Source: Cyanidioschyzon merolae (lineage: Eukaryota). From it: a DNA stretch of 64,000 bases. The position numbers and the translations under genes are program-made. Below the pieces are notes generated by a model. It ran no database searches, had not been told where the DNA came from, and saw only the letters and a list, made by a program, of their open reading frames with translations. The stretch lies in assembly GCA_000091205.1 (NCBI GenBank), contig AP006501.2. One strand, given 5' to 3'. Below, in pieces: positions 3,028 to 63,612 of this stretch; the first letter of the stretch is position 1, and the number at the start of each line of letters is the position of its first letter.

Positions 3028-3849
3028 ATCGTCTTATGTGGAACGGTTGGGTTGCAAATAGCTTCCGAACGGCTTTGTGACATGCGTACGTTGTTCACGG
3101 TGCGCGGGAACATGTCATCGCGATGGTCGACGATTTCGATGCCGACGGCGGAAGGTGCGGTCCCTGCTCCACTTTACCGGTGACCGCCATGGCCGGGGCT
3201 ATGCGGAAACGCGTGTGAGCGCACTGCAGTGGTCTGTTGGAGCATTTTACGGACGTGTTGCTGCATTGCAAGCGACAAAAGTAAAAAGGAATGCGAATTT
3301 CTCCGAGGAACTTACCTTTCTTCATGCAATGGGTCCCGTTCTGCTGTGAGACTCGTTTCCTCGTGCTAGAGGCAGATGCTTGGAAACAGGAGTTTTGTTG
3401 GATCAGCGCACAGCGCCTATTCATAGGATATGCTTCGTCTGGACACCCCTTGCGTTTCCGGAATCAATGAGAACGACTGTCCACATGATACAGCTGCTCA
3501 TCATCGGCGCCAGGTTCTTGTAAGCCCCAGGAAAATCACCGTCCCAGCTCACGGGCTTGCCCCGGCATGCCAAGTCGTCGTGTGAACCGCAGCGCAGCGC
3601 TCCGATCGGCAATCGAAAGCGCAGCAGTGCTGGTGCTTACCGTGGCGCGGCGCGCGCGTTGTGCCGCAGCAGCGGATAGCGCTCAGTCTCTAATGTGGTA
3701 CATATCAGAACAAAGAGGAACGGGTGACTTCAAACTGCTCGTTGCTCGCGACATCCGGAAACAGCTTTGGCGTCGCCAGCGCTACAGCTGCAGCTGTTTC
3801 TGTGAGCTCGACGCAGCCGCCAGTCTCGCTCATAAGTGCTTCGTCGTCA

Positions 3850-5256: not shown

Positions 5257-6010
5257 ACCCGCCATAACATTGGACATTGTCAGTCATGTACAACGCTGAA
5301 ATGAGGCGCCAGATGTGCATGGAGTCCGCAAACAACATCTGATAGCGCTCGGGACGCTTAACAAGAGTCAGCGACCAGGAAATCATCCTAGTTCTTGATC
5401 ATTTCAAAACATTTGTCAACGAAACCGGGTCCTGCACGCTGGTTATTTTTCGCGCGAGGCTGTACTCGCTCCATGTACTGTTCCGTTGCAGCGTCACGAA
5501 TGCGGAATTTTCACGAGCGAATCTGAACAGTCTCTGTGCGATACACGGCTTTCAGTTAACCAGCGAGCTCTGTCCGTGCACTGCGCTTGCTCTACGCTTC
5601 ACGGACTGCGCAGTCGGCCAACTGCCGCCGGTGTGCGTTCAAACTTTGGGTGAACAGCGCAAGCGACCAGCGTATCAGGCATAGTGCTGAAGTCAAACTG
5701 AACGACGCAACGCTCTGTAACTGAGAATCAGCTCCGCCGATTCAGGGAGATGCACCCAAAGAAACGGTGAAAACAACGTAAAGAATCGAAGGGCTCTCAG
5801 ACCGACGTGGCGTTGGTACGCACTGGCTTGATGAAGCGCTCGTAACAGTAATCGAATGCAGTTACACGAGTGCCAGACTACAAGGAAAACAGTTCCGCTT
5901 AGCTAACTCGGGTGTACGAGCGAAAGCTTGCGCTGTTTCCAACTGTCATCAGCGTCAGCCTTGCGAGCTTTCTCTGCGACCGCTTCCTTTGCCTCTCTTG
6001 TATCTGCGGC

Positions 6011-7245
6011 TTTAGATACGCAGGTGTCTCTCGTGTACCGCCAGATCCATTGCCAACAGTCGAAAGATGATGTACGCTTTCAAGTCCTGATTCCGCTGCT
6101 TCCGGCTGCCGTTCATGGAGTACGAGGACCAGGGAAGACAACGATTTTCGCATTGCTTTTCATCTTTCATCTCGCTTGTATTCACCCTCGGTGCGCCGCT
6201 CACAACCGTGACACATGACTGAGGTCAGCAGTTCCTCTGCTGCACAACACGCTCTCCTCCGAATGCCGCCCTGGAGCGCGTGAACGCCTCGTTCATCGCT
6301 CGCGAGATGCCCATGGCGAGCACAGAAGGCCACCCGCGTTGCCGTCCTCTGTTTCAGCACCCAGTACGGTGCCCTGTGATCACGGGCTTCTTCGGGATGA
6401 TCCCCAGTGTACCTGGTGTTTTTGCGGTACGCGCAAGCACATGCTGTCGCCGTCAATAGATGGTGTGCGGAACCCGCTCATGCCCCCGAGGGATCACGTG
6501 CCGGAAGGCGAATCGCGCCCGGAGACCCGATCGAGCGGGTGTCGCAACGTCGACGCTCCCTTCGTGCAAGGCGGTGACGTGTGATCGGTTGGATGCATCC
6601 GGTACAACGAATCAAGTCCGAACTCCAGACTCTTTTCCGTACAAGTAGATTAGCGGGAAGCCTCTGAGAGCCGATGCCCTGAGAGCCATCACGCTTCTGT
6701 CGAGATCCGTTTTGTCGCTGAGTTCACAGAGACTAGGACTTGCGTTTCGAACGGAATCGTTGATTAGATGTGATTTGTTCAGGAAACGCTCGGAATGCAC
6801 TTGTGCACACATCGCTAGGGCACGACGTCGCGCTCGTTCCCCAGTGCATCCAGCGCCGCGCATTGCCGCGCCCACGAGTTGATTCAGAACTGAGAGAAGA
6901 TCGAAAACGTGCACGAACGCGTGAGCCTCTCATGCAGCATGTGAGGAATGGAGAAGAACAGAGGCTTTCGCGTACGAGCTGGATGACGACACTGGTTATT
7001 TTACGAATCGCTATTCGATGAAGTTGCGAAATATCTTGATTTCCAGTGACTCGACGAATTCCAGTAGCAATGGTTCGAGGTCATTTTGCGGAAAAACGGC
7101 GACTAGGAACGCTAAACTTACGTATGAGTCCGTAAGCCCTGCTCGCTCTACGTCGAATATCGATGCTGTTCATCTAGAACAAGTTCGGAAAACAATCCCC
7201 AGGCAGAAAGAGGTCACCCATTCATGTGCTCTTTCGGAATGGAAT
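6011..7245 (+). repeat. Copy 2 of the ~1.23-kb direct repeat, ending ~55 bp upstream of the ETF-beta start codon
   Basis: See copy 1. Copy 2 diverges from copy 1 after ~7245. Confidence 0.9.
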
Positions 7246-7300
7246 CCAATCGGATGGGTGGCACGGCCGCGCTGCTGCTTTTCCAAAGAACAGACAACAT

Positions 7301-14037: not shown

Positions 14038-15069
14038 CAAAACGTGCAACTCCTGTCCTGTAGAAGTTAGCAACGCTTTCGTTTATCCTTTGCGGAAGGC
14101 GCGTGCGCGTCGCTTCACGGGAGCACGACAGGCGACCCGCGTATCGACGCCGGCATCGCGTGTTGCGCTGTGGCGATTTGAAATCAGCGCGCGCTGCCGT
14201 GCCTCGCAATGGACGTGCCCTGCTAGACGCAGTTGACAACTCGATCTATCTGTATTTTTCTCGAGTTCCTTGAGGAACGGAAAATTCAGGAAGCAGACGG
14301 GACGTCCTGGTTTGGATTCGCATCCTAAGGTGTAGCATTCATGAGTCGCAGTAGAGGGTGGTATACCGCGCATGTCGACGTTAGACGGTAAAACGATCTT
14401 CGTTGCCCTCTGAATGCTTCTGCGAAGTGCGAGCCGCGGCGCAAATATAGGTCCAGGAGCCGAAGCAAACGAAAGAACTATCGAGTCTTAAAAAGCGAAT
14501 TTCGATGAAAATGGGGCAGTGAACTGCTCGTTCTCTTCGTGGCTATCGATATTTTTAGACATCGGTTTTCAAGAACATCCTCGATATTCTATGTGCAGCG
14601 AATAAGGATTGTCGGATTCAGATGCAGTTTTTTTCTTCGGATTCAAAGTCGAGTTTTTGGAGTGGCTCTTTCGATGCTTTGTCGCTAAAATTTGAGATGC
14701 TGCCAGCTTCAAGGCGATTCGCGACGCCCACGAACAAGCGATCGTAAGATGACCGATGCTCGTTTCCAAGTCAAATGTCCTTGGCTCTGCTCTTTTCCGT
14801 TCCTGACGTGTCCCATGCTCAAAGAACGCATTCTTCTAGGTTTCAATCGTTATATTTTCAACGAAACTCGTGGACGTTGCCATATCCGCTCATGGATTTC
14901 CGAAGGAAACTATGCAACGTCGTCTCGCGACGCGCTTTTGATAAGCTCACACCCAAAGTTCATGGAGCGCGCACACGTCAAATAAACGATTCCGTTCGGA
15001 AGACATATCCTCCTGTGTCGGTGGCAATTGCCGAAACTGCACGCGACAGCAGCATTATCTCTCTCACCG

Positions 15070-15700
15070 CTTACGTTAGATTAGGCTCCCGGCTCTTCTG
15101 TTTGCACGGGAAATGGCCGTGGACTCGAACTTGCGGCCTAGCAGCGATTGCTTCCAATGGAGCATGTGTCAGCGATTGCAGGAAATTAGCGTAGACGGAT
15201 CGGAATTTCTGGATTTGGTCTCCATCCAGGTTTTTCCTCCCAGTACTTGTTTCATCCTAGACAGCATCGCGTGCCACAAATCCTCTGTCGAATGGAACCT
15301 CGTTCGCTCGCAGCAGACAGCGTGCTCGCCAACGGAAGCGCCCTGAATACACCTCTGATCATACGATATAGCGCAGGGAATGGAAGCGAAAAGCCTTGAG
15401 TAGCGCCCTCTGTACACTGCAAGGGCATGTATCGCGTGACGAAAGCGAGCCTGCCCAGGCCATGGGTGGTCCTCGGAGCAGGAGCACGTGCGGTGGACCA
15501 ATTGGAACACCTCACAACTGCCAAGTGTCACCGTTGCAAAGTGCGCAACGAGGCTGTACGCAAAGAATATGAAAATCGCCAGCGGAACATAGACTGGAAC
15601 TTCCGCCCGTGCAGTGTATGCGTCGACAGCCGCCAGATGCTGCGAAATTCGGATGATAACGCTGCCACCAATATCCGTCGACTGCTGACACGCGAGCCGG
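15070..15700 (+). mobile_element. TnpB/Fanzor-like degenerate reading frame, copy A
   Basis: Three motifs in order. At 15075-15110 there is LGSRLFCLHGKW (TnpB N-terminal LG.ARFVYN-like). At ~15200 there is GSEFLDLVSI (GIDLG-like). At 15520-15680 there is TTAKCHRC-x24-CSVC-x10-DDNAATNIRRLL, which aligns with ISDra2 TnpB SSQLCHDCG...CPNCG...RDENAALNIRR. The three pieces lie in different frames, so the copy is pseudogenised. Confidence 0.6.
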
Positions 15701-16890
15701 ACTCAAACAAGCGGGTGGTTATTGAAAGCCGGATCTTTGAGATAAGAAACCGAAGCTGGCGTGGAAATCCGCCTCAAAGGCTGGTGTTGACGGCAATTGC
15801 AAGACATCCAAACGTTGTTATGCACGCTCACATTGGGGGGGGGGACCTATTCCTTGCTACTCAGATGCATTTTTGTTGTGGACGCCCAAGTCAGCAAAGG
15901 GGACTCTTTCCATTTTATTCTGACGTGGAAATAGGTTTGGGTGAGCGAATAACGCGCCGAAAGTCGATATTAATCGCGTACCCAGGTCAGTCTGGCTCGG
16001 TGCATCGTTTCTAAACCGCAAAACCAGGACCACACACCTGTGGTATCCGGGGGAAGCTGCTAGTGCCGCAAATCATTTACACCGCATAGAATTCGCCGGG
16101 CAGTCTGATACGTATGTTTCAGGGCCAGAGCAGGGGCTCTTCTGTGCCGAAGGCTTCACGGACATTACCTAACGAGACGCGAGCATACCACCCAGACACG
16201 TCCATGAAACCCATTCGACACGTAATGCGTGGATACCTGTCCCAGTTTGATTCACCCCCGCATGCACAGCATGCAATACGGAGCTGGTATCCGCAAACCG
16301 CATCCTCGAAAGCTTCTTCTTCTTCGTTGTCCTATTCACTTGTGAAAGTTATACAAAAGCGACCCGAATACTCCAACGCCTTGTTCTTCAAACGAAGGTG
16401 CAGCTCTCTTGTCCCGTGCTACGATCCGGTAAAGACGGATATCGCTCGAATCCGATGCAGCGACTGCAGGCGCCCGCGTTAGGAGTGCGCTCTCTCCATG
16501 GGACCAGCGTAAACGCAGCATCATCTTGAGGAGCATCGCACACTGGGTGCGTAAAGCGCGGGATACTGCAGATTGCCGCTGGTGCGAATCCAAGCCAATC
16601 TGGGCAATGATACGTGGTCTACGAATTCAAGTCAGGATGGAGCATGCTTCATGTGTGCTGCTCCCGAAAAGTCGCTTTTCTAACGCGGTCACTCGGTGCA
16701 CCTCGTCCTGCAAATCGGTGAAGCGACCCAGCGGCATCATTCCTCACAACCCTCTGGTCCTAACTTGATTCATTTGGAATCAGCGATACCATCGCCAGTG
16801 ACGCGCAACAAGCGCTTACACGTTCTACCGGCAATACGAGCAGCGAGCAGCTCTTCCGCGCTGCTACGTTTCACGTGCTAATTACCGCTC

Positions 16891-22733: not shown

Positions 22734-24757
22734 CAATGAGCTCCGCTTCCGATGTAAACGTTATCCATAAAAACTTACAGAGTAAAGCCTCAAGTGTGCT
22801 GAAAGGTTGAATACGACCTCACTTTCACTTAAAGTAGGATCAAACCCGCAGCACCGGTGCGCAACTTGTCAAAAATTGTCGAGCTCCGGGAACTCACCAC
22901 GGCTCTGTTACAGTGAGCAAGATGCGTCCGTGCGTCCAACAAGAGACTCGTGGTCAAGTTGTTTATCCGATCGAGTAACGAAGACACGCTCGGGCGAAAG
23001 AAAGCGCTTCAAGAAGAGGCTGTGTATTCGGGATATTACAATTGGTGTACACCGTTTTGAAGGGGCATGCGCGATACCGATACCCATACAGCGCGATACA
23101 GCGATGACGAGAACCTGGTGCGTCGCTGAAGCTAAAGTTTGGGCCTCTTCAGAGCTGTTCACTAGTGCTGCTTGCTTGCACTATGGGGCATGCGTCAGCG
23201 AGACATGAGCAACTGCTAGGCGGGAGCGCGCTGAACGACGACCGCCATAGACGCTTTACGGTTCGTGCACTTCCCAGCTTGTCTTACGCTCATGCGAGAC
23301 TATGAAGGGATGGGTCCAGCAACTCGGATACACACTCTAAAGTTGGTATCTCTTGCTATTATCGTCAAGACAAGGCTTCTCGGGGTTTTCTGAGACAACA
23401 TCTTTTTCATCTTCCTTACCTTTCGGTGTATATTCTCCAGTGTACCTTTTTTTTTGCAGATCCGTTCATAGCAGTCGAGAGACACTGCTAGTACTCTGAA
23501 AGTCCCAATATCGCTGGTTTCGGATGCCGTTCTCGCACCCTAGGCATAGAATGTCGTTGCGATCTACACGCTGCATGCGAGAGTCATCGCCTTCGCATAC
23601 AGACAGAGTGTACCACGCTCAGCGGTGACACGTCGCGGTACTCAGGGATTCCCGTATACCCACAATGCATCCCGTTCCGAAGCGGCGCCCTGTGCCGCGT
23701 GAGCACTTCCTTCGCCGTTCCGTGCATGTTGTTGACTGGTAAAGAAGGCTTCTGTCGATGCCTTCCTCCATTCCTGTGCCCGGTGACATGCACGATGATC
23801 ACGGGCCCCTTCTGGACGATTCCCGCGGCGAGTACGCTACCCGCTGGGCACGCAAGCGCACGCTGCTCCATGCGGTAGCGCAGCCATGGAATGCAGTATT
23901 GCCCGTGATGAAACAAGCACCTGAATGGAACTCCAGAATCGGGATCCAGGCGAGAAATCCAGGACGATCCACGCTGCCTTCGTATGCGGCCGTGACGCGC
24001 TCATTAGTGGAACCGGTTGCGGCGATGACTGCAGCCCTCGTCCAGGACGCTATTCCATGCAAGCGGAATGCACAGAAGCTTCTGGGACCATACTTCGTGA
24101 TGGGCAATGCTTGTGTCGGATCTCGGTTCGACGATAGCCACGGAGAGCGGCGGCTTTGTTTTTTCCAAATGGAACAGGCTTCCTGACGTAAGCGGTTCCA
24201 TGAACTCGCCGCATGAGCCTGTGAATACGTCGCCAGCGGACATCGTCGCGTATTTTGTTTCCTCGTCAATCCAGAGATCCGCATTGCTGCGTCCACGAGT
24301 TGCCTGAAACAGACACATCGAACACCTTGAAGAATGCGTGATTGACGCAGAGGCCAGGCAAGCAATCGAGAGGAATCGAGGCGACTGCACATGCGTGGAT
24401 GGTGGTATTGTTTTAATGCTGCGAAACCCGTGATCGACGGCGCTGGAACTCATCATGATTCCGGTGGTGAAATCGAATTGCAGCGTCAGGGAATCGAAGG
24501 AGCCTCCACGGAAACACGACCGAAAATATAAAATTCCGCATGCATCCCCAAGCTCTTGTTGCTCTACCTTGAACGTTGATGCAGCCCAAGCAAAAAAGAT
24601 CGAAAAATATCGAAAGATAGGCGCAAAGCGAGTCATTCCATGTTCCATTATAATCTGACATGAGTGTAGGCAGGCACTGGTGTTCAGGTACGCTCCTCCG
24701 AATTTTATTCTGAACGCTCCGGCTCTGGCTACCTATACGGATCACGTTTTCGATGAG

Positions 24758-27033: not shown

Positions 27034-27048
27034 GGCGACGGCGGCGAC
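27001..27048. repeat. (GGCAAC)5-6 followed by GGCGAC repeats
   Basis: Hexanucleotide microsatellite seen directly. Confidence 0.9.
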
Positions 27049-27195
27049 AGACGTTCATGGACACAGCTGCGGCGTGAGGATCCGGCTACGTTCACGTGTA
27101 ATAGTTCGCAAAGCTTGCTCGGTTCCAATGAACCAAAGTGCTTCCATTCTTCATGAAAAGTGAGTGGTAAACGAGAGCCACAGCTAAGAGCTTGA

Positions 27196-29948
27196 ATGAA
27201 TACTACAAAAGAGTCTGCAGCAGGGCGCCGGCAGAGCTGGAACTTGCACCACTCACGGCGAAAAAGGTCCAGCACTGCAAGTCTCCTTGAGAGCCGCGAG
27301 TACACCGACACGAACCACTTTTCGAAGCAAACCGCTTGGACAGCCGAACAACTTCACCGGAAAGGTTTTCGTCGCCACAGTTATGATGTACCGACACCGC
27401 CGTGCATTTTCCGGCGGTTCACCCCGAACGGACGATTTCTCCTTGCTCTTGACCGAAACGGAACGGATCTGCTTGTCTTCCCTTACGTACACTGGTCCAG
27501 TTCTGTGCCGTTTTCTACGCAATTGAAGGGCGCTGACTGTTGCAGTGCGGAAGACCCGGCCAACAAGGTAAACCTGTCCGAGTCAGGCGGTTCGGCCTCG
27601 TTTTCCGACTTTTTTCGTGAGCCTCTACGGATAAGTGTAGTGAATGCCTATACGACTGGCTTCCTTGCGTATAATAGGGCACGCGCTTTTGGTATGGATA
27701 CACCACTGGAGGCAGAATGGGACCCTACTGGTGTCTACCTTCGGGACTTGCTTCTGTGTACACCCTGTGGTCGATTTGTTCTCCTGGGAGCGTGGCGAGC
27801 TCCGTCAACACCCGCACTGACGCACCGAGGCGAGAGCCTTCGTACTGGATCACAAATAACTGCCGCTGTATCGGAAAATTCCCACTCGAATCGTGAGCGG
27901 TCATCTACAGACAGCCATATGGAAAGCGCAACAACCGGAAGCGGGCAAAGAGGCAGCTTTCGGCGACTCGCAGCGCGCCACGTTGCCGATTCGAGTTCGC
28001 CTGCTTCTTTAGCAGGATGCCCTGTAGTACCCTCTGTCTACCTTTTTCTGGTCGACATGGAATTACAGCGAGTTGTAGATGTCTTCATGTTGCGTAATGA
28101 CCTTGTATTACTCGACGGAAACTCCGGTGTCCAGCTATTTGATGCGGACCTCGTGGCAGTGACCTCCATGGCGCATCAGGCAGTGCATCTGTTACGTATC
28201 CGGCAAGGAATCGGTGGTCTGAATCAACAGTGTGGATGCTTCCAGTACTTGACGAGCTTCGGACCGCACTGTTTCTCCGATGACGCGTTACTCATTGCCA
28301 AACAATATCGCCGGGAGCGCGATTTTCGCCGACAAGGTCGACGCGTCTTTGCACTGCAGTTACGTGATCTTTTACAGACGGAGAACTCCAGTGCAGAAAG
28401 CGAGCCGCTAGATGACGTTCCAGTTCAGCCGTCCGAGGCCAACAATGACGCCTCAGCAGCCGGGGCATGCATTTTGCCGTCGCACCCGCAGGAAACATCG
28501 GTGTTGCCTGTCGGCATGCAGAAGGAGCCTGTCGGCGGCATCGTGGAGTCTGGGATACCCCAGAGACGGTGCCGTCGACAGCGCCCCCAGAGCGATGACA
28601 ATTCGGAACGCGAGGCTTCCCCCTTTGTGATGCCATGTACGAGTGCGGCCGCTGTAGCTGGTACTGCTATGGCTGCAGCGGCGTGTCGTATGGCGTATCG
28701 CCCGCAAGAAAAGGAATGTTTCATCACGGGTTTGAAGCAGCGTCTGCTAACCTTTCTGTATCGGAGCTACACACAGGGAAAGCCATGCTCATATTATGAG
28801 CGGTTTGCGGCATCGTTCGAGAGCCTGCAGTCCTTCGTTATTCAGCGCGCTGCGCTGATCAGCAAAAAGCATTTCCTGGTACGCATGGTTCCCGCGCGAC
28901 TCGCCCTGAAACACTTTCTCGGCCGGACGGCTTGCTCTCTCTTTCATCAGCCATGGTACGTTTCGGGCGTTGCGGTTACGGGACTGGTCGATTCTGACTT
29001 GGCGCTACTGCACGCAGCAGAAGCGCACAGCACTGCAGATTCTGAGCAGATACCGGCGAGCGCGGAACCAGGATCGTACAGGCAGCAACTTCAGCATCTA
29101 TTACACGCCCCCTGTCCTGTACTCGCCGACAACATTGTTGCCTCAAAACGCCGACAGGATGCTTTGAGTGCTCTGGTGGCTCAATTGCGCACCACGTTTT
29201 ACGTGATCTACGACTATTTGAGCACACAAATTGAGGCAGTGTTCTCGCCCGGCTCGGTGGAATTCCTCGCACTCGCACGTCACCATCCGGAATGGTTCGG
29301 GTTGCGCTCCGGCGTGCCGCTGTATCGCATAGAGAGCGCCGTGGAACGACTCGAGGAATTGAAACTAGTCTGTGGAGCGGTCTACTGTCCAGTGTGCCAC
29401 CGGGAGCACCGCTGCGGTAGCGTTGCTGCGCGGAACACGCCACGCAACATGGCTCATGGAACAGACGAACGTGCTGCTCTTGTCAAGGCAGAAATTGCCC
29501 TATTATCGGCGGGCGCTCCGCTTGATACATCACAGAGGCACGAGCGCTGGTCGATGGCTGTGAAACCGGAGGCAGGTGCTGGTGAAACTTCTTCGACGGG
29601 TAAGCGTGCCGACACTAGAGCGGTTACCGGGAACTGCACAACTTTAGGACAAGATTTAACGGAGCGCGGACCTGTCATGGATGTCGCTCACCTGTACAGG
29701 GAGCCTTTGCTAACGATGTTCTTGCTGCTGCCGTTGCCGTGCCAACCGGCTATCTTTTCGCCCTGGTTGAACCGACGGTTCTTCTCCTACGATGAATCAA
29801 AGTTGTGGAGTAGAGACCTATTCCATCCAGCCGTATGCGACGAGTATCCCATGGTGCGTGTTTTTCATCGCGTACGCGGAACACTCTCTTGGCGTATCTA
29901 TCCGGCAGCGAAGAATGAGAGAGAGAGATTATCTGCTCGCCCGTTCGT

Positions 29949-29981
<33 letters not shown>

Positions 29982-30243
29982 CTTGGAAGCTTCACGAACA
30001 CATACGCCCGTGGAAGGCGCGCGTACGTCGACGACGCACGCTGGTGCACCAGACCACAGCCAAAGAACCGTCACTGACACCATGTTGCAAGCAACGGTAT
30101 CGTACTTGCCGGATGCGGAAGCAGAGCCGCGTTCCAGAGTTCGCCAATACGCATCCTATATCTTTCACCCACAAGATGCTTTTTGTCTGAGTATTTTATG
30201 GTCATCAGAACGAGCACCAGTTGTGAATCTGCACTACGCTTGA
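27196..30243 (+). CDS. DET1 (de-etiolated 1)-like protein, unusually long, with a poly-Q tract
   Basis: N-terminal segment YDVPTPPCIFRRFTPNGRFLLALDRNGTDLLVFPY matches the conserved DET1 block [33 protein letters not shown]. The rest is long (1015 aa vs ~550) and low-complexity, including an in-frame (CAG)11 at 29950-29981. Confidence 0.5.
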
Positions 30244-30800
30244 GGTTTGTACAGGTCGCATTGGCCCACGAGGCAGCCCGCGGGAACGCCGCTTGTCATG
30301 CTCTACACATACATTCCGGTGACGAGGCAAGTCGGCAGCCGCGGCTAGCGTTGATGACCATCGCAGCGTGTTGTGCGGCGCTTTCGTGCGTCGAATGTTT
30401 TTCTTACCGCGGATTTTGAAAGCAAGAGAAGCGACGCGGGTGAGCAGCAAATATTTTGGGTGTCTCGCAGTTCCATCCAGATTCCAGGTTGATGCAAGGG
30501 CCCTGATTCACGGAATCAGCGATTCAAACAACAATTGCCTTGCAATCCGGTGTATCGTTTCTGATGGTGCTTGGCATGATGCATCGCTGAGACAATCCGC
30601 TGCTCGTCATCATAAGCATCAGCTTCTGCGGTTGATATTGATGTTACTGCTGCTGCTGCTGCTGCTGCTGTTCAAGGTACGCCATGAGCAAGCATGAACA
30701 CTGCGACAGCGCTCCCAAATCTAAAATAGTTGATCCGCTTTACCATTTCCGGGCATGCAATAGAACAGCATGCCATCCATGCACCCTAGATACGATGCGT

Positions 30801-31331
30801 CTATGATTTCGTAGCAGGGCTTCCATTACCGCGTAGCGCCTTCTCGCTTGCTGGTCGAAAGACGGTCGACTCCACTGCGAGCGTGCGAATCACCGAGTCG
30901 AGTCGCTTTCGAAAGCTCTCACTCACGATCGATGTGCCGAGTGTGTAGAGCGGATTGCGTATTGCACATTCGACATACGCTTCGCGATAGACGCGCTGCA
31001 GAATCCGGGTTAGGTCGCTTGCCGTTGGCGACGTTGTCAGTACGAAGCGCAGGCCGGTGCTGCTCTCAAAGCAGTGCAACTGGTATTTCTCCGTCGAGTA
31101 ACTGCAAAAGTTAGATGGTCCTCTCGGCATGTACCGAGTTGCTGTGTCGATAGGAAGAGAGTCATCATTCGCGGGAGCAAGGCTTCGGCAGAGCTGTTTC
31201 ACGGCGAAGAGAAGACCAATGAGGTTCTGTTGTTCTTGTTGTGTGTCCGAACCGGGGCGTGTTCGTTGCCATTCCCGATAGTAGAGACATGTGCCATGTC
31301 TACTAAACAGGTAAAAGTTGTATACCTGCAT
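30801..31331 (-). CDS. TRAPP complex subunit 1 (Bet5/TRAPPC1)
   Basis: MQVYNFYLFSRHGTCLYYREWQR...LIGLLFAVKQL...KYQLHCFESSTGLRFVLTTSP...RVYREAYVECAIRNPLYTLGTSIVSESFRKRLDSVIRTL aligns with human TRAPPC1 (MTVHNLYLFDRNGVCLHYSEW...YKLHYYETPTGIKVVMNTD...VKNPLCPLGQTVQSELFRSRLDSYVRSL). Start ATG at 31331. The ORF extends further upstream, but that part is not homologous. Confidence 0.8.
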   Translation of the reverse strand: MQVYNFYLFSRHGTCLYYREWQRTRPGSDTQQEQQNLIGLLFAVKQLCRSLAPANDDSLPIDTATRYMPRGPSNFCSYSTEKYQLHCFESSTGLRFVLTTSPTASDLTRILQRVYREAYVECAIRNPLYTLGTSIVSESFRKRLDSVIRTLAVESTVFRPASEKALRGNGSPATKS

Positions 31332-32909
31332 GAGGTCAAACAATGAATAGCGCGTCCCAGCACTGTGGCGGGCGTTGCTGTTGACAGTCTGTTTCCAACG
31401 GGAACTATCCTGGACGCAGGCGAACGCGTCAACTCCAAGTCTCCGACCAGGTATGGTGCTATCGCTGCTGCTCAAGTGCAGGATGGTGGTAAAGCTATCG
31501 CGAATCTACGACGATGACACTCACAGCGTCGTTCGCAGCGGAGAAAAACCGTCGATACTGTGTCGAACGCGAGCGTTCAACGAGAAAAACTCACTGAAAC
31601 GCGAACAGTCGTGATGAACAGGTGCTCAGCGGGGTTTCCCGCACGGCACGCCGCGAGGCGCCTCACCCGAGTGAAGTGCCCGAGGAGCTTTTCGGTCACC
31701 TAGCTGCCTCCTAAACGCCACCTTTCAGCTAGCTTCGTAGTCAGTGCGAACTCCTTTCCGTCAGCGTTGCCGGAGCCCTGTACTGAAGCGCGCTTTCTAG
31801 CTTGACCACGAATGGTCGCCGCTTTTGGAAAGCACGGCTGCAGAAAGGAAGATCACGACCGCAGCCTGCCTTTGTGCAATCTGCGTCGTGCTCGGTAACA
31901 ACCTGTATGAGCTTGGGTTAGAAATCCGCTTTAGCAAGTGAGACTCGAGTCTCCGCGGTACCGGGGATCACGAACCGGTTAGCGAGCTTGGTGTGCTGAA
32001 GGCGCCTCGTAGGGCACCAGGCTCCCGAAAACTGGTGTTCCTCTTCCAAGGCAAAGGTAGCTGCAATCGTTCGCTATGGAAAATCTCTCAAAGTCTTTGC
32101 GGTGGAACAGGACTCGCAACCAGTTTCGAGACGATCACGCCCAGAGAACCGGTGATAGAGGCAGGTCCGCGAACCGCGCCTGATAGACCAAAACCTCCGA
32201 ACGAGAGCCAAGGGGTTCCTAGTCTTGCCGTGACCTCCTTCAAGAAAGCGCTTTTGTACGCTTGCGTATTCACTTTTTATACAAAGGTATGTTGTTCATC
32301 TCGAAAACGAAGAGAGAAGGGTCAGAGTGATAGGGCCAGAGGCCTTCTCACCGTCTACATCCATGTCAGATCATCATGGAAAACTGCACTAGTCGTTCTG
32401 CTCGTGCCTTATGACTTTTTTGATTTTTCTGCAGTACAATCTGGGTATTCATAGTCCAGCGATAGAGGGTTACGGAAACAGAGGTAGGTCTTGGGTTTTC
32501 GTCTGTCTTTTTTGGACGGCTCCTTGGGATTTTTGTCGCTGGACTTTGTTCCATCATCGGAAGCAACCTGATCCACGATGCACTCGTACAAGGGGTTCCT
32601 CAACTGATCGAAATCAGCATCCTATGCATTGTTAGATGACTCCACACTTGTTCGATCTTTACGGTTAGCAGGTCCAAATAACGCGTTCTTTCAACTATTC
32701 AATCTTTCTGGCCGAGGCAACTCCTGGGCGCAGCAATTCGCTCTGCGGGATTCACAAGCAAACACTCCATAATGTTGCTTGATGCGTCGTTCACACGCTC
32801 ATGCCGAACGTTTACTGAACTTGTCACGCCAAATAATTGATTCTGTTCCGAGTACAAACCCTTCTATCTGTGCGTCCGTGTACAAAACGGCAATCCACAG
32901 CAGCATGAT

Positions 32910-33563
32910 TTGCCTCATGCGATATGCTCCCAGAGACTACCGTTTCTCCTGCTTGGATGCAAAAGGGTCACAGATTCGCACCTAATTCATCAGAGCGACG
33001 AATATCAGGGGCGTATGTGTCTTCGCTTTGCCCGAAGTGACCATGGAAGGATCAAAATTTTGGGACTTGATCTCGAGCCTAGATTCTCCTTCCGGTACTT
33101 GGTACATCGTGGACAACATCATGTTACAGAAATCCTGTTCTGAACAGAGCAGCGTGCGCTTTTGTGTGCGTCGGACAGCGTACATGCAGGGCGGATCGCC
33201 TGGCTGAAGCTCGTGATCCTTGGGTTAAGCAGCAGTTGTGGAAACCGAAGAACGCGTCGCGAGGAGCCTTCAATACCCATCAAGAGCATCTACGGAGCAA
33301 CAAGTGAGGCGGCCGTGTGGCACAGTTCGGTCTCCGGAGGAGGCGCAGAAGTTGTGGTGGACATACGGGACCACCTGACCATACGCAGGTGCGACAAATG
33401 CGAAGGGCGCACACAGACAGTATCCAAACGACAAGATGAAAGTGACATGCGCAACGTTGATCGAAACTACCGTCTATGCACGGAGTGTGTTGACTATGGC
33501 CAGCAACTACGAATTTCGGGTTGCAAACCTGCCAACAACATCCATCGATTGCAGACAGCGTAA
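32910..33563 (+). mobile_element. TnpB/Fanzor-like compact reading frame, copy B; one frame with a single in-frame stop at 33141-33143
   Basis: Motifs in order: LLGCKRVTDSHL at ~32950 (LG..RFV-like), ILGLDLEP at ~33057 (RuvC-I GIDLG-like), VVDIRDHLTIRRCDKC-x26-CTEC-x13-ANNIHRL at 33370-33550 (OrfB zinc ribbon plus RuvC-III-like). The layout matches copy A despite low sequence identity. Confidence 0.5.
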
Positions 33564-34270
33564 CCGATGGGAACGCAGCGCACTGGGTGTTTCAGGCACG
33601 GGATACGAAAGGGGACATGACATCAGTCACAGGAAAAGCCCTGGAAGGCCGCAGGCGATAGCAGCGGGAAACCCCCGAAACGTTAGCGTGCACGCTCGAG
33701 TCAGAGGACCCATTCCTATGCATCCTCGCAAATGCAGGGATGCTGCCTTACCGTACCCTCGCCGTCGACCTAGGGAAAAACGATTGCAAAATCCGTTCGA
33801 GAGTCATACCGAGACATATTGTTCACTCGTGGAGGCTCGTGTCGCGTCAGCCACAGCTCAAAAAGCCACGTATTGGGTTCATCGTCTATGCTCACTCGAT
33901 GGAAGCGCCGTCGACCGACGACTAGTTCGACTTCACCTGCAGCCGCTACGTACCATTGAATTCCGCTCCAGACTGGGCCCGCACAAAACTCGCTCACATA
34001 TTTGACCAGATAAAAAAGCGTGCTTGAAACCCTGCCTCGAAGCTTCTCAGGCGTCCATCGTTACCAGCGGCACTTGTTTCGAACGCCCACGCCTGCATTT
34101 CTATTGTTCAGAGCATCGCAACGAGAGCGTGTTTGTCTATACACCGACGTGCAGACGCCTCCCAGCCTTTTCGACCGGCCCCCTGCTATCAGCCTCAGCT
34201 TCTCCTTGCACACTTCGGAATGAAGAGGTTGTCCCACAAAATTCACTTGCGTCAGCACCGCGGATCTCGT

Positions 34271-35342
34271 CTACAGCATCGCACATTGTCTGATATTAAG
34301 AGCGGCGTTAACGTCTCGGTTCACGAACTCACTGCGTTTCTTGCCGCCGCTTGTACTCAGGATCGCGAGGATTCCTAGTACTCGTGCCCAGTGTGCCACA
34401 ACAGTGTCGTCATCGGCCCGCCGGGCGAGCGCTTTTTCTCTTCTATTTTCCCTGTTCTTCTTCGTCATTTGCTCTATTTCGATTGATGGTCGGCGAATAT
34501 GGTATTGATCGTTCACTCCCGGCAGCGGGTACTGGCGGCCCCGAAGGATACCCGACTTGAATGTCCATATCTTTATTTTTTTAAAATCGAACCCAGTTTG
34601 AGCGCGTATGCTATAAACCGCGAAAAATCGCCTGAATAGACTTCCGTGAGGGTTGAAATACGATTGAGACGAAAGACTATACTTTGCTATGACTTCAACG
34701 CAAATGGACCGCCTACGTTACAGCCACACGCTAATGATCAGGATCGCGTTTCCCTTCAACGGCGATAGACGCATCGTATCTCATGCCTCCCAGATATGGA
34801 GGCTGGCGTATCGACCGAACTATCTAGAACGAGGAACGGAGACTAGGCACTACATGGCAACTCGATAACAATTTCGATCCTCGCTACGATAAGCGCTAAA
34901 ACGGGAAATCGTTTCCGAAGTGTCGAAAGTCTACCTCACAGGCGGCAGGTCCCGCGAGCCGGACGTCTCTCCCGGGCTGGTGCTTCATGCTCCCCCAGTG
35001 CCCGGTGCTGTTGCGAGGCCTGAGCAAATCGCCCGCAATGCACTTGATCCTGGGACCAGGAGCGCGTAAACTGCATCTAGGCGTCGGCTTGGTCGCCGAA
35101 GTATCCCAGTATATCGCTGCGCGCTCCACAGGCGGGACGTCTGTCTGCGCAGCTTGCAGACTCCCCGAATGCTTGTGTTCTCCGATGCCGTGCGGAACGG
35201 ACCACGCCTCGAATCGATCCACTATGTAGTCTGGCAATGCCGTTCTGTCTCTATGCTGCATCTGCATCGCCGTTAAGGGTGCCAAGGCAAGTGCTCTAGG
35301 TACGCAAAGCCCCCGATAGAACGCACAAAACGACCGGTACAT
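34271..35342 (-). mobile_element. TnpB/Fanzor-like degenerate copy B'
   Basis: The N-terminus MYRSFCAFYRGL (G..RFV-like) sits at 35342 and the C-terminal FVNRDVNAALNIRQC (RuvC-III RDxNAAxNI) at ~34288-34330. The interior is interrupted by stops in all frames. The 5' third is ~88% identical at DNA level to 63880-63945 (copy F). Confidence 0.5.
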
Positions 35343-35368
35343 CCGAGAGGAACTCTATATGATGGTAC

Positions 35369-36406
35369 ATGGTAGTATTGCGCAGCATGATGGAAACTTG
35401 GTCGTTTACGGGTACCCATCGATCACGCAAGCTGGGACCCATGGTCAATATAAGCGACTTTTATCATCCGGAAATCGTCAAGCGTTGCGGTCGGTGCGCA
35501 GATGCGTTGCACTGCGACACGCCCAGAGGCCGGTGCGTTCCAGGCTCCGCCCGAGTGCTGCTGCTTGCTTGTCTGTTTCTTCTCTCGTACTTCATGGATC
35601 AAGTGAATAGTTCTAACTCACTAACAATTGCAATAGTTGGTTTCGGCAACTTCGGACAGTTTTTGGCGAAAGCGTTTGTTCAGGCCGGTCACCGGGTGAT
35701 CGGACATTCGCGCACCAACTACGAAGCGATTGCGAGGCAGCTCGGTTGCGGTTTCGAAACCAGTGCGGATGCGCTGATGGACCTCCATAATCCTGACATT
35801 GTCGTGTTATCGACTTCGATACTCTCAACCGAAGAGGTCCTGCGCCGATTCCCGACAGCGAAGCTTCGGAGCTGCCTCGTTGTCGACGTGCTGAGCGTCA
35901 AGGTGTATGCACGGGAGCTCATGCTACGCTACGCACCTGAAGAGGCTGATATTTTGGCGACGCATCCCATGTTTGGTCCAGAGTCAGGACGTGGTTCATG
36001 GCGGGGCTTACCATTTGTCTTTGAGCGCACGCGAGTTCGTCAGCACGAGCGTTGCGAGGCCTTTCTATCTATCTTTCGGGAGCGTGGTTGCACGCTCATC
36101 GAGATGCCATGTCAAGAACATGATCACTATGCGGCGAGTACACAATTCATCACCCATACGACAGGTCGCATGTTGGCCGAGCTCAAAATTGCCTCCACAC
36201 CAATCAACACCCGCGGCTTTGAAGCACTGTTGGCGGTTGTAGAGACGACGGTGCGGGATTCTTTCGATCTCTATTACGGTTTGTACCGCTTTAATCCGAA
36301 TGCAAAGCAAGAGTTGGAGAAGATGCAGCGAGCACTCGAGCAAGTACGAGCCCAACTCGAAGCGTACGACCGCAAGTGTCGCGAGGCTGAAGCACGCTCA
36401 GCCTGA
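35369..36406 (+). CDS. Arogenate/prephenate dehydrogenase (TyrA), plant-type
   Basis: IAIVGFGNFGQFLAK...ILSTEEVL...VDVLSVK...THPMFGPESG...CEAFLSIFRERGCTLIEMPCQEHDHYAASTQFITHTTGRML...STPINTRGFEALL...DSFDLYYGLYRFNPNA is near-collinear with Arabidopsis arogenate dehydrogenase. The N-terminal ~75 aa (hydrophobic VLLLACLFLLSYF) may be a targeting sequence. An alternative start is ATG 35594. Confidence 0.8.
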   Translation: MVVLRSMMETWSFTGTHRSRKLGPMVNISDFYHPEIVKRCGRCADALHCDTPRGRCVPGSARVLLLACLFLLSYFMDQVNSSNSLTIAIVGFGNFGQFLAKAFVQAGHRVIGHSRTNYEAIARQLGCGFETSADALMDLHNPDIVVLSTSILSTEEVLRRFPTAKLRSCLVVDVLSVKVYARELMLRYAPEEADILATHPMFGPESGRGSWRGLPFVFERTRVRQHERCEAFLSIFRERGCTLIEMPCQEHDHYAASTQFITHTTGRMLAELKIASTPINTRGFEALLAVVETTVRDSFDLYYGLYRFNPNAKQELEKMQRALEQVRAQLEAYDRKCREAEARSA

Positions 36407-37374
36407 AACCCCAGTGGACGCTATCTTTCACGAGGTGCGAGACATGGACGGGATATATGGCGCGCTGTGTTGGGAACGGCCGTGTAAGCTGGTCGGCTGC
36501 TACCGGGAGCATCGCATCGAGATGCCCGTGCCTGCTCTCGAGTCCGTGGGCTCGGAGACCGGACGCTCCGGCGCTGCCAAGACAAGATGTCGATATGGGC
36601 GATACGTACACGATTGATGAATTTTCTGCAGAATGCTGAGAGGTGCCACGGCATTACGCGACGGTACTGTGGCGTTGCAACGCCCATCTTGCCACGGAGC
36701 GCCCACAGGCGCGCGCGCACACACACACACACAAAGGCCTTATTTTTCTGCTGACCCGATAGGCGCCGAGCTTCGCACAAACGCTTGCTACGGAGCTTGT
36801 CGGGTCAGCAGACAAATGAGGTCCTCGTGCTGCGACCTGTGGACGTCGGAGCGCAAGCCGGATCCGGCGATGACGACTCCCCGTCCGGATGCGAACGAGA
36901 ACATTCAGCTGCCGCGCAAGGTTCCGGAAATCGCGTTTTTCATGGCATTCGCCATCGGGATGTTGCACTCGTTCGCTGTGTGTTGTTATTCCGGACCAGA
37001 TCGCTGGTCATGCTGAGATTGTTCAACGTGTCACGCAATGGTGACGAATGGGCTCCTGCTGTGCGACATGAATCATTTTATACTCGTCATTGGGATTCTG
37101 GAGCCCAACGCATCTGCGAGCTAGGCACGTCGCCGTGATTCACCGGTTAAAGGTTTCACTTTTGCTCAAAGCGTAGTGTGCACTCAGTACAGCTTCAAAA
37201 AAATTGACAATGTGTCTGCGATACATTCGAGTCGATTCCAACGCTTGCGGCCTCTTAGGGACTGGATGCGTTACTCCAGCCGCAGCACATGTGCCTCGGA
37301 GGTAGCAGCTTGCGAAAGCATGGTCGTCGCTGGGAGCGCGCTGCGCGTTGAACCCCATGGCATCATCGCTGCGC

Positions 37375-38553
37375 TCACGATTGGCCAGCGAGGACAGCGG
37401 CTCTGTTGGCAGCCGCCTCCAGCCCTGGCCGTGAACACTGGCGTCGCACTGCCCGTTTCACATCATCTACAGACGGCAAGGCGCGCTCTTCCAGATTCTT
37501 TGCATAGGGCATGACAACATCTGCACCAGTGACGCGCTCACACGGGGCGTCCAGATAATCAAACGCTGGAGACTCTAGGATTCGCGCACAGATCTCTGCC
37601 CCGACACCGCTCTGGGGGAAGCCGCCCTCCACAGTCACACATCGGTGTGTGTGCATCACGGATTCAATGATTGTCTGGTCATCAATGGGTCGAATAGTTC
37701 GCAGATTAATAACCTCCACCTGGATGCCATCCTCGGCCTGCAATTCTTCAGCGGCCTGCAGCGCAAGCCCCACATACCGACCCAGTGCAACCACTGTGCA
37801 ATCACTGCCCGAACGCGCAACTTTTGCCTTCCCCAGTGGTACGACAAAATCCGGCTTCATGACTTGTTCCGAGACCTTAAAGCTCCGTCCATACATGATT
37901 TCATCTTCAAGCACACAAACGGGATTGTCGTCCAAAATCGCCGCTGTGAGAAGTCCCTTGGCGTCTTCTGCGTCGAAGGGCATCACGACCTTCAGGCCTG
38001 GTACGTGTCCGTACCAGGCAGCGTAGCACTGCGAGTGTTGACCTGCGACACCCGCAGCGGCACCGTTCGGCCCTCGAAACACGATCGGCACTTTAATGCG
38101 GCCTCCACTCATATAGTGTGTTTTCGCTGCTGAGTTCACAATCTGATCTATTGCTTGCATAGCAAAGTTCCAGGTCATAAACTCCACTACAGGGCGCAGC
38201 GCACCACCTCGCGGCTCTGAACCTCGCGTCGCAGTGAACGCGGCACCGACACCGAGACCCGCGAAACCCTGCTCCGTGATCGGCGTGTCGATCACACGTT
38301 CCGTACCGTACTTTTCGAGTAAACCTTTGGTGACTTTGTAAGCGCCCTGGTACTGCGCAACTTCTTCGCCAAGGATGACCACGCGCGGATCACGTTCCAT
38401 TGCCTGATCCAATGCCGTGTTTAACGCTTCCCGAACGGTGACTTCCACGTCACCTCCAGTTGATGCCCATCGCCGCACAGTTTGACCCAACGGTGACCTA
38501 TGAATCAAAGTGTTCGCCCGACCAAATCGCGTGATAAACTGTGTCGCCACCAT
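37375..38553 (-). CDS. PDHB: Pyruvate dehydrogenase E1 component beta subunit, presequence-bearing
   Basis: 392-aa single-exon ORF starting at ATG, with a presequence-like N-terminus [20 protein letters not shown]. Conserved PDHB blocks run throughout ([39 protein letters not shown], transketolase C-terminal domain). It contains an ~11-aa insertion ([11 protein letters not shown]) in the GAA(M)AGLRP loop. Confidence 0.9.
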
Positions 38554-38744
38554 GGTCGCGTCTCGAAACGCATAAAGCGTTGAAACGCCACAAGCACCAA
38601 CGATGCACCTATTGCTTCGAGTCGCTTGCGTGACGCCGGCGGCGATTCTTTTCCTTCATTGACAAAACGTGTACTGAGGCCAGCGTTCTCCGATGATGCG
38701 CTTTTTTCTATTCTTAGTTTTTTTGTGTTGTTTTCCAGTGCACG

Positions 38745-39000
38745 GTGAGGTATCTATCAAACCCCTACCTCCATGTTACATTACCGATACTTCATCTCGG
38801 ATATTCTGGTCGTTTCACCGCCGATGAGGATGATGATCGCCTTTGTCGATGCACGCTGCATTCGTCAACTGAAAACCGCACCGGCGATGGGCGCGCATCG
38901 AGTGCGGCAGCGGCAATCGGCGAACGACGTATCGGGAGGGTATCCATTTGGATCGTTGGGTGATATTCTCGGTGAACGTCAAGTCGGTGTAAAGCGTTTC
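38745..39000 (+). mobile_element. Short fragment of the TnpB/Fanzor-like family (copy E) inside the PDHB/HEAT divergent intergenic region
   Basis: 38790-38830 CTCGGATATTCTGGTCGTTTC is homologous at DNA level to 63655-63690 (copy F) and to the reverse complement of 35320-35345 (copy B'). It encodes LGYSGRFTAD (LG.ARFV-like). Confidence 0.3.
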
Positions 39001-40014: not shown

Positions 40015-40979
40015 AAACCCTCTGACGCTGCACGCGCCGGTCTATGCCCAGAATCCGTATTGAGACTCTGACGACATGAACCAGATAAAATATCTTTTTT
40101 GGCTCTGAACTCGCTACTCACATGGACCTCTGCAAGTCCCGAGCCGTCTCCGCTTTACGCGTTCCCAGGGCATTGCCCAGCATCGTTCTGGAGCCAGCGC
40201 CGGTCACCCTGTACACGGAAGCATCCCAGAAGCTTCGCCGGAGGTGTGCAGCGTTTCCAGCGCAAACACGCGACCGGAGTGATGCAGATCGGAATGCAGC
40301 AGCGCAATCATTATCGTGTTATTGAAAGGTTGGTAACGGAGGCTTTTCTATCCTGACCTAGAATGCCGTTAAACCCGTATCAGATGAATATCGAGAACTG
40401 AACTGGTTGTTGTGGTGCTTTCGTGCGATATTTTTCCATGCTCTTTTCAGATGTACAGTCGGGATATGCAAAGTGCAGCAACATGAGCTACTGGATGCAT
40501 GTGTCGTGTTACGGCTTTCGATCGTTTGTTCGGTTGCGCTCTTTCGACGTTTTGCCGATGACAATCGTGACTTGATCGGAATCAAGCGGATTCTCAAAGC
40601 CTTCAACCAAAGCTTCGTAAAATAACCGATATCCTTATCTGATAACAACGCAGAGGCCCTTGCAACACTCCTTTCCATACTTGAAACATGCTCAACTCAT
40701 GCATTCTTCATGTTTGCAGTCTTTCGGTTTCAACGCACGTCGTGCGTGCAGCAATTCGCACCGCTGAATTGACGAGAAAATGGACGGGACGTCGTCCCGT
40801 GATTCCTTGTTCAACAGCTCATGCCGAAATCTGACGGGACTTTTTTTCTTTGATTCCTCACATAGGATATATGCTCCCAGAGGCTCCCGTCTTTTCTGAC
40901 CGCCTGGATAAGCGACTTGGACCTGGACTCGAGGCACCACAGCGATCGCTTCCGATCCCGAGCGCGTCAGTAATTTGCG

Positions 40980-41500
40980 CGAAGCGAGCGTAGGTGGATC
41001 CAAAAATTTCTCGACGTGATCTCGAGTGTGGATTTTCTTTCAGCTACTTGTTTCATCCTGAACAACATTGCGATCTACAAATCCTATATCGAATCAAACA
41101 ACATGCGTTTGCAGCGGAAAGAGTACTCGCGGAAGGGATGGCCCAATGAAAGCCCGTGATCGTAGGGCACGGCACCGGGTGCGGAAATGATGGGCGGCAT
41201 CGAGGCGAGCCTTCTGTTGAGGTACGGGTATGCAGGGTGGGATGAATCAGGCGTTCAAGCGGCACGGGTCGGCCCTCGGAAGAGGACAGGTTGGTAGACT
41301 TATAGGTGCACCTGACCACGACGAAGTGTCTCGGCTGCGAAGTGCGCTTCCAGGGATGAGTGCAAACAGGATGACAATTCCAAGCGACGTTTGTATTGCA
41401 ACAATCGCATGTGGATGAAATGGGTCAGCAACAGCTGAAGGGATCGAGAATGGGACTCGAACGCCACCACCAACATCCTTCGACTGCTGGCAACGAAACT
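40980..41500 (+). mobile_element. TnpB/Fanzor-like degenerate copy C
   Basis: KFLDVISSVDFLSATCFILNNIAIYKS at 41000-41090 is homologous at DNA and protein level to copy A (EFLDLVSIQVFPPSTCFILDSIACHKS). DSNATTNILRLL at 41454-41489 is RuvC-III-like. Frameshifts and stops lie between them. Confidence 0.4.
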
Positions 41501-41927
41501 CGAGGGGAGTGAGAGACCGGCTCATTGAAAGCCGGGAATATGAAAGCGGACAAGGAAGCTGTCGGAGAAAAATCGCATCATAGCTGGTTTTGATGGCATT
41601 AGGAAAAGACGCAAACCTCAAACTGGACCCCCGAGTTAGCTGAGTGCACTCATCGCATTTTATTCTGATACGGCTGCTGTCTGCGATCAAGATACCCCTG
41701 TTGATTGTTTTGTTACCGTATGCGCCTGCTCGTTTGGATTCTGACCTGGCTCCCTTGCAACCGAGAAGCAGCCGGTGCTGGCGAAAACACAGATGCTGGC
41801 TCGCCGCGCACCGAATAACCTCGATACGCTGCAACTTTGGCAAACGTTTGACGCACGTCGCTAAACCGTTGAACCAGCTGCCGCGTATCCCGTCACTGTA
41901 CTGCGAACAGGTCGCGCCCATGCGTTC

Positions 41928-63396: not shown

Positions 63397-63612
63397 TTCG
63401 CTTCGCCCGAGGTGCTCGGTCCTCGGTTATGTGAACACTGGAATACCTGCAGAAGTGCAGCAAGCAAAACGCAGTGACGCCTCGTTTCCGAGCGCACGAC
63501 GCCGACCGCAAACTCCGTTGCCTCTCGAGATGCCGGGCCCAGATTTCGCATATGTTGTGATTGTTTCGATGACAAAACATCCATTTACCATATATCCCCG
63601 GTTTCGGGATGG

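Follow-up and report, generated by a model that had tools for sequence, protein, structure and literature searches.

The window, a 64,000-nucleotide stretch of Cyanidioschyzon merolae DNA, holds at positions 32910-33563 a frame that raises a simple question: is it a compact TnpB-like gene spoiled by one stop codon, or the remainder of something longer? The first-pass annotation favoured the former and proposed a near-intact, genuinely short protein whose layout recurs in a second copy (copy A). As a description of the letters it was largely accurate. ORFs 32910-33143 and 33162-33563 do share one frame with a single TGA between them (33141-33143), and all the peptides it cited are found in the translation of the interval, which reads 77 codons, the TGA, 139 codons and then a TAA. 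The surrounding sequence is eukaryotic nuclear DNA, with long intron-poor ORFs (Sybindin, Det1, DNMT1-RFD, P-type ATPase and others) and ~55% GC.

32910-33563, plus strand: interval of the first-pass annotation, C-terminal part of the frame with remnants of the helical linker, RuvC-II, zinc finger and RuvC-III (translation, tblastn)

The interval, called copy B, sits inside a ~1.38-kb repeat, which tblastn, blastn, MAFFT and nhmmer find six times in the window, its ends being common to every copy.

14498-15868, plus strand: copy A (tblastn, MAFFT, nhmmer)
32356-33738, plus strand: copy B including its terminal inverted repeats (TIRs), with an alignable core at 32363-33731 (MAFFT, nhmmer, comparison of termini)
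40377-41671, plus strand: copy C (tblastn, MAFFT, nhmmer, repeat search)
23292-24661, minus strand: copy D (tblastn, MAFFT, nhmmer)
678-2051, minus strand: copy E (tblastn, MAFFT, nhmmer)
5870-7247, minus strand: copy F (tblastn, MAFFT, nhmmer)
32356-32385, plus strand: left TIR of copy B, CATCC ATGTCAGATCATCATGGAAAACTG, with a TA just before it at 32354-32355 (comparison of termini)
33709-33738, plus strand: right TIR of copy B, degenerate (comparison of termini)

When the copies were aligned with their flanks in MAFFT, identity was 55-60% across the whole unit and ~35%, i.e., background, beyond the same two boundaries in every copy; nhmmer likewise recovered six full-length copies. Lengths range from 1295 to 1378 bp, with 12-19 gap openings per pair at ~56% identity, and the pairs form a star-like pattern at 54-59% identity, from which only E and F depart (95%). 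The relatedness of copies A and B is therefore real, although the ~30% identity first reported for their proteins was too low: tblastn gives 39% over 170 aa (E=7e-24). Comparison of 12 termini yields one TIR consensus for both ends, CAyyC-ATGTCAGAT.A..ATGGAAC. The reverse complement of the right TIR of copy B is TTGCGAGGATGCATAGGAATGGGTCC, to be compared with the consensus ATGTCAGA..A..ATGGAA.GGGTCC, and in copy C the repeat search found 17-nt arms, 82% complementary, precisely at the element ends. A TA lies outside 6 of 14 ends at the same offset (binomial p ~2e-4), and no copy combines an intact TA on both sides with unambiguous ends. In Pfam scans of the family-frame consensus and of 31000-35500 in its three minus-strand frames, no transposase domain is detected, so the element, if mobile, needed a transposase in trans.

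Three features of the copies were noted along the way. Between element nt ~30 and ~1230, copies E and F show 97-100% identity, which falls to 59% in the final ~100 nt and to background in their flanks; the pattern suggests gene conversion over a ~1.2-kb tract between old copies that lie 5 kb apart and point the same way, rather than recent transposition or segmental duplication. Right after the end of copy A, at 15873-15924, an extra 52-nt match to the last ~50 profile positions (nhmmer E=1e-6) is a small tandem duplication of the element terminus. Finally, all six copies are intergenic and lie in the first 42 kb, at spacings of 5.2, 8.6, 8.8, 9.1 and 8.0 kb, with none in the last 22 kb. The C. 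merolae genome measures ~16.5 Mb, and the copy density here is far above the ~1 per 100 kb expected of ~150 copies of CMe-1A, the Fanzor1 family already published for this alga.

What did the repeat encode? A majority consensus of the five independent copies, read in the register of copy B, stays open for 390 codons, from element nt 74 to ~1250, far longer than any other frame. Searched by tblastn, this consensus spans 32436-33605 in a single frame, in which the ORFs of the other copies also lie, and the ancestral frame reaches ~470-550 bp upstream of 32910. A choice of frame by tblastx between copies had been tried and was set aside, as all frames scored alike and none was singled out.

32436-33605, plus strand: full ancestral Fanzor1-derived frame in copy B, ~390 codons, without frameshift and with five internal stops (consensus, tblastn)
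33141-33143, plus strand: in-frame TGA, derived from CGA, the Arg of a conserved YRMEQRAL (comparison of copies)
33561-33563, plus strand: premature TAA ending the frame of copy B, ~15 codons short of the ancestral stop of the family (comparison of copies)

The wording "near-intact, single stop" holds within 32910-33563 and fails for the homologous frame at ~32436-33605, which has internal stops at 32463-65 (TAG), 32637-39 (TGA), 32679-81 (TAA), 32838-40 (TGA) and 33141-43 (TGA) before its premature TAA. The impression of a single stop arises from where the boundaries of the interval were set. The other copies mostly carry sense codons at the positions compared: the TGA at 32838-32840 corresponds to CGA in A, E and F; the TGA at 33141 corresponds to CGA in A and C and to CGC in D, being shared by E and F; and the position of the final TAA is a sense codon in the other copies, the consensus stop following KPEI. 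The 390-codon frame is, in this way, broken at different sites in each copy. Mismatch frequencies by codon position (0.43/0.41/0.45) reveal no codon periodicity, and column conservation fits a homogeneous neutral star model, with 22% invariant columns observed against 19% expected. Copies have diverged ~28% from the consensus, and the divergence among them looks neutral.

The TnpB-like ancestry proposed at first was right at the level of the superfamily: homology to intact Fanzor1-like proteins traces the frame back to a gene for Fanzor1, the homologue of TnpB in eukaryotes. Copy B conveys little of this by itself. Its product alone matched no TnpB model in Pfam, the sole match being a weak zinc finger, and Pfam scans found no TnpB family in the ORFs neighbouring it, nor on the minus strand of 31000-35500 in any of its three frames. 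The five-copy consensus gave nothing at E<=0.01 in a word-indexed protein search, and its alignment found no match in a PDB profile search. Its top Pfam match was PF07282 (Cas12f1-like_TNB; E=5e-4), at 20.6 bits under the 26.3-bit cut-off, and its top NCBIfam matches were Cas12f2 and guided_TnpB, all of them C-terminal. Over the same part, the consensus is collinear with the C-termini of Chlamydomonas and Chlorella Fanzor1 (z=10-12 against shuffles; green-algal sequences taken from the supplement of Bao & Jurka 2013).

Sensitivity came from relatives. A profile built only from stop-free fragments of the window (profile A2) and scored against 1.84 billion representative proteins at E<=1e-3 finds 234 proteins. 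Some 140 of them come from other decayed copies, as short ORFs with 40-60% identity to the consensus, many of which extend in frame across the 5′ half. Among the 234 there are also intact relatives: P0033 (682 aa), P0020 (756), P0156 (692), P0160 (698) and P0166 (833). An HMM of the family, built from 142 fragments, matches the intact relatives at E=1e-43 to 1e-53, and hhalign pairs the two with 100% probability (E=9e-43). Residues 521-651 of P0033 match copy B at 33132-33542, right across the TGA (tblastn E=5e-10). The PF07282 cut-off is passed by the consensus of the 142 fragments (27.3 bits) and by the relatives P0033 and P0024 (34.1 and 34.9 bits); it is the family consensus, and not copy B alone, that carries this assignment.

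The relatives themselves can be placed. Against PDB, their profile finds a single sequence, Fanzor 1 of Parasitella parasitica (9cf0, E=0.003), in an alignment that passes through ETDGVGVSI, DPGR (RuvC-I) and the C-terminal RD motif (nRD.aA.N). A phmmer search of PDB with P0033 returned one match only, which was judged spurious. Compared with CMe-1, the published C. merolae Fanzor1, the intact relatives reach 98.2% in hhalign (E=5e-14). From their sequences we conclude that these 680-830 aa proteins are Fanzor1. The closest nearly intact gene lies on a 7.7-kb JGI contig (L006, 3300035702; 3416-5656), where a frame of ~746 codons is open, complete but for its start codon and some 35 codons at the beginning. 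It is packed among genes for RNA ligase, 2H-SAK and Peptidase_S74 on a contig of 56% GC, a context that looks viral or mobile rather than algal-chromosomal; the 3′ flank of the gene resembles, by eye, the right TIR of our family.

The intact proteins give the order in which motifs should be sought: IETDGVGVSIV, then after ~60 aa GLDPGRVNLYTTA (RuvC-I), FYSR.RHL, W..Y, VL..EFM..DERCK.RMV.FRL.QRALARAAD, KPVIIGYGTGRGNGGGHKGEPSVPVKAMYRAL..AFKRHR, VWEHLTTQKCHRC (the RuvC-II Glu and the first zinc-finger pair), DRDFRVCEHC and RNRDFNAAINIL (RuvC-III). The corresponding places in copy B are as follows.

32538-32575, plus strand: remnant of the Fanzor1 motif IETDGVGVSIV, in copy B AGLCSIIGSNLI, about where homology to the intact proteins begins (hhalign, low confidence here)
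~32760-32801, plus strand: position equivalent to RuvC-I (GLDPGRVNLYTTA in the relatives), in copy B KHSIMLLDASFTRS, unrecognisable (collinear blastp against P0013, hmmsearch envelope, low confidence here)
33354-33380, plus strand: RuvC-II segment VVDIRDHLT, the Glu position at 33369-33371 being GAC, i.e., Asp (consensus against intact relatives)
33390-33488, plus strand: zinc-finger remnant of the TNB domain, from CDKC at 33390-33401 to CTEC at 33477-33488 (PF07282 on the consensus)
33510-33551, plus strand: RuvC-III segment RISGCKPANNIHRL, in the consensus RNRDLNAAINILRL, the Asp codon being GGT, i.e., Gly, at 33519-33521 (family alignment)

At the first of these places the family consensus reads IEIDMV and the window consensus EIRDTIGIKLI. 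ILGLDLEP, which had been read as RuvC-I, aligns instead with a helical stretch, VLWDEFL, ~90 aa downstream of GLDPG in the intact relatives; the site equivalent to RuvC-I lies upstream of 32910-33563 and outside it, and no GxDPG is visible in the family consensus. A peptide from an alternative frame, PPLSVAIDETALDSSIISLTAY, was considered for RuvC-I and dropped, since it is the frame of the first-pass annotation that aligns with the intact proteins there. At RuvC-II, VVDIWEHLTT of the consensus corresponds to V(W)EH(L/Y)TTQKC of the intact proteins. All four zinc-finger cysteines are kept in copy B. Judged by the motif that Bao & Jurka defined for Fanzor1, D-X(125,275)-[TS][TS]-X-X-[C4 zinc finger]-X(5,50)-RD, copy B keeps the C4 finger and fails elsewhere, with no recognisable upstream Asp, TI (in LTIRRC) for [TS][TS] and SG for RD; the family consensus has TT-AK-C, C4 and NRD, while its RuvC-I Asp is not recognisable. 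An uninterrupted ORF with the RuvC D/E/D triad is absent in copy B (five stops, premature end, Glu to Asp, Asp to Gly, degenerate RuvC-I), and with these lesions it is predicted to be inert today.

Was the protein short by nature? As to a genuinely short ancestor, the 1.38-kb unit held an ancestral frame of ~390 codons and not 217, and the intact relatives are 680-830 aa long. Homology to them starts at IETDGVG, which falls at family aa ~36, at ~32538 in copy B and at aa 292-466 of the intact proteins. The 290-465 aa ahead of this point are conserved among the intact relatives, with the motifs LPEH, YIATK, LHLxCC and PFPN..LGR.YQRLC. When the N-terminal parts of six of them were searched against the window, nothing matched in the element or elsewhere (best E=0.27), and the full-length Fanzor1 architecture, with its N-terminal REC/WED part, is not present in the element. 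The layout shared by A and B was correctly noticed, recurring with identical ends in six copies; as proof of a naturally short protein it does not serve, the copies probably sharing their breakpoints because one 5′-deleted, non-autonomous element multiplied.

We therefore read copy B as a dead relic of a 5′-deleted, non-autonomous Fanzor1 DNA transposon and not as a compact enzyme, a reading to which we give a probability of about 80%. The history would run as follows. An element carrying Fanzor1 between TIRs of ~25-30 bp would have lost ~1 kb of 5′ coding sequence, corresponding to the N-terminal 290-465 aa. The residue would be the 1.38-kb unit, in which the two TIRs enclose the last ~350 Fanzor1 codons, beginning at IETDGVG and running over RuvC and the zinc finger to the end of the protein, and a 3′ tail of ~130 nt; the unit probably inserted at TA. 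One old burst would have multiplied it many times over, presumably with a transposase acting in trans, and the copies would then have decayed neutrally to ~28% from their consensus, copy B escaping frameshifts by chance. The internal deletion, the mobilisation in trans and the duplication of a TA target site are our inferences, as is the parent element: this genome yielded no copy that is full-length and bears these TIRs. Local alignments between the family ends and the ends of the contigs of two intact relatives (L007 and L008) scored no higher than shuffles; the family termini resemble the ends of L006, L007 and L008 by eye only, and we do not rely on this.

One observation speaks against the deletion. 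Between the two TIRs the consensus frame is open almost throughout, which a random deletion need not give, even if a third of all deletions would keep the frame; decay of the 5′ ~100 nt and of the RuvC-I region has blurred the exact breakpoint. The alternative is that the founder was a naturally short Fanzor1 of ~390 aa, devoid of REC and functional while it spread, the present copies being its pseudogenes. In its favour, the open consensus fills the space between the TIRs, the ORFs of many independent copies do hold the frame through the 5′ half, all copies end alike, and the size is near that of bacterial TnpB, about 400 aa. The frame itself argues otherwise: no in-frame ATG opens the 390 codons near their start (the ATG in the left TIR belongs to another frame) and GLDPG is unrecognisable even in the consensus. 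So do the relatives, since every intact one found has the conserved N-terminal region and none of the 234 profile matches is an intact short member. The apparent exception, P0024 (376 aa, on a 1408-bp contig), was discarded, as the ORF goes on through the 244 nt ahead of it up to the edge of the contig, revealing a truncated gene call. We consider a minimal founder unlikely. If true, it would be the smallest Fanzor known and could be reconstructed from hundreds of decayed copies.

It could also be asked whether the repeat was kept for a non-coding role, e.g., as regulatory DNA, a guide (omega) RNA or a chromatin element, the protein-like frame being incidental. The well-conserved lengths of the copies and their intergenic positions 5-9 kb apart would suit such a role, as would the low variability of copy B. 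Over window positions 27048-38900, compared with two metagenome contigs (L002 and L003), copy B has 3.7 differences/kb, genes 1.3-2.4, a neighbouring CMe-1A relic 0.8-2.3 and other intergenic DNA ~11, this last figure counting indel columns, so that the lower variability of copy B and of the CMe-1A relic may be an artefact of how indels were counted. The conservation spectrum, on the other hand, is that of neutral decay, with no conserved blocks. No Rfam family matches the window, the fold of 33540-33738 is no better than shuffles (z=-1.46), and the six 3′ ends yield no consensus structure (-1.8 kcal/mol), although decay could have erased a guide RNA. Given in addition the overwhelming protein homology to Fanzor1, a retained non-coding function seems to us very improbable.

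Least credible, and contradicted by our results, is the reading with which the question began, a near-intact compact protein of ~217 aa whose stop is a sequencing error or is removed with an intron: the frame with its one TGA within 32910-33563, the zinc-finger and NAA.NI-like remnants in the expected order and the identical layout of copy A speak for it, but the exact 29-mer spanning the TGA occurs in four of four independent metagenome contigs, so the stop is genuine, the suggested intron at 33098-33146 is 49 nt long, would shift the frame on excision and sits in a stretch homologous to coding sequence in the relatives, the homologous frame runs 470 nt further upstream through four additional stops, the catalytic Glu and Asp have become Asp and Gly, ILGLDLEP is not RuvC-I and the substitutions are neutral. 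The four contigs, from JGI metagenomes, are 99.1-99.4% identical to the window over 24.4-41.3 kb, and the Sybindin protein has an identical sequence on them.

Other debris is found in the window. A 189-aa ATG ORF at 33436-34005 (plus strand), in a different frame, extends from the 3′ part of copy B into the flank; it has been called as a gene in metagenome annotations (L001-L004), has no Pfam match and is, in all likelihood, no real gene but a call on transposon debris. On the strand opposite to copy B, and only ~400 bp away, lies an internally deleted CMe-1A copy (34143-35468, minus strand), in which a junction links consensus positions 2-894 (77% identity) with 2849-3092 (75%). Both the beginning of the Fanzor1 ORF and its C-terminal end are retained, the latter with a well-preserved RuvC-III, FVNRDVNAALNIRQC (ORF 34271-34516). 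At 63567-64000 (plus strand) the 5′ region of CMe-1A / TE-N2_CMe (consensus 1-429, 81% identity) runs off the end of the window, and a 53-bp fragment at 38764-38816 matches CMe-1A 84-136 at 89%. The presence of CMe-1A pieces speaks for a Cyanidioschyzon-type host.

As a genomic fossil copy B is ordinary: like the five other decayed copies, it carries only the back half of a much longer gene. Genome annotation should treat the 1.38-kb units as transposon relics and mask them, together with the ORFs called in them, among which are the 189-aa ORF of 33436-34005 and many of the "hypothetical proteins" from metagenomes. More generally, common truncation points among repeat copies speak for amplification after truncation and are no proof of a short ancestral gene. 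For those hunting active enzymes, copy B is no compact nuclease, and the intact metagenomic relatives are the place to begin. The relics indicate that red algae of the Cyanidioschyzon type have, besides the published Fanzor1 lineage, a second and older one, and the relics are now tied to intact Fanzor1 proteins of 680-830 aa known only from metagenomes.

Among known systems, the nearest to compare is CMe-1A, the single Fanzor1 family listed for C. merolae, an element of 3169 bp with ~150 copies ~80% identical to their consensus, no TIRs and a protein of 734 aa (Bao & Jurka 2013, PMC3627910). Both families belong to the same host lineage and the same protein superfamily, and both are multi-copy, decayed and without a recognisable transposase. 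In contrast to CMe-1A, the family described here has TIRs and only the C-terminal ~350 codons of the protein, and it is older, with ~28% divergence from its consensus versus ~20%. The two share zero nucleotide similarity, and the C-terminus of our consensus compares weakly with CMe-1 (z=4.5) and strongly with green-algal Fanzor1 (z=10-12). With no nucleotide similarity and only a distant protein, the 1.38-kb family is separate from CMe-1A and, judged from these alignments, is a second, older Fanzor1-derived family beside it.

Fanzor1 is also found in Mariner/Tc1-type TIR transposons of 3.4-3.8 kb with TIRs of 24-33 bp and a TA target duplication, e.g., PUl-1 of Pythium ultimum, which carries, besides a full-length Fanzor1, a second, transposase-like ORF (PMC3627910). 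Our family resembles these elements in its TIRs of ~25-30 bp, may resemble them in its target sites, a TA lying at 6 of 14 ends, and differs from PUl-1 in being a 1.38-kb unit with no transposase and a partial Fanzor1. The structurally known Fanzor 1 of Parasitella parasitica (9cf0) is a distant relation (E=0.003), and copy B lacks both the N-terminal half and the catalytic residues. The TnpB proteins of bacterial IS200/IS605 elements, such as that of ISDra2, are ~400 aa long. The RuvC and zinc-ribbon (TNB) core is common to them and to our family, and the ancestral frame is of similar length; unlike IS200/IS605, the family sits in a eukaryotic nuclear context, has TIRs rather than hairpin ends and has no TnpA. 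The ancestral frame, moreover, is devoid of the WED/REC part that TnpB possesses, and its match in length to the bacterial protein is probably a coincidence of truncation.
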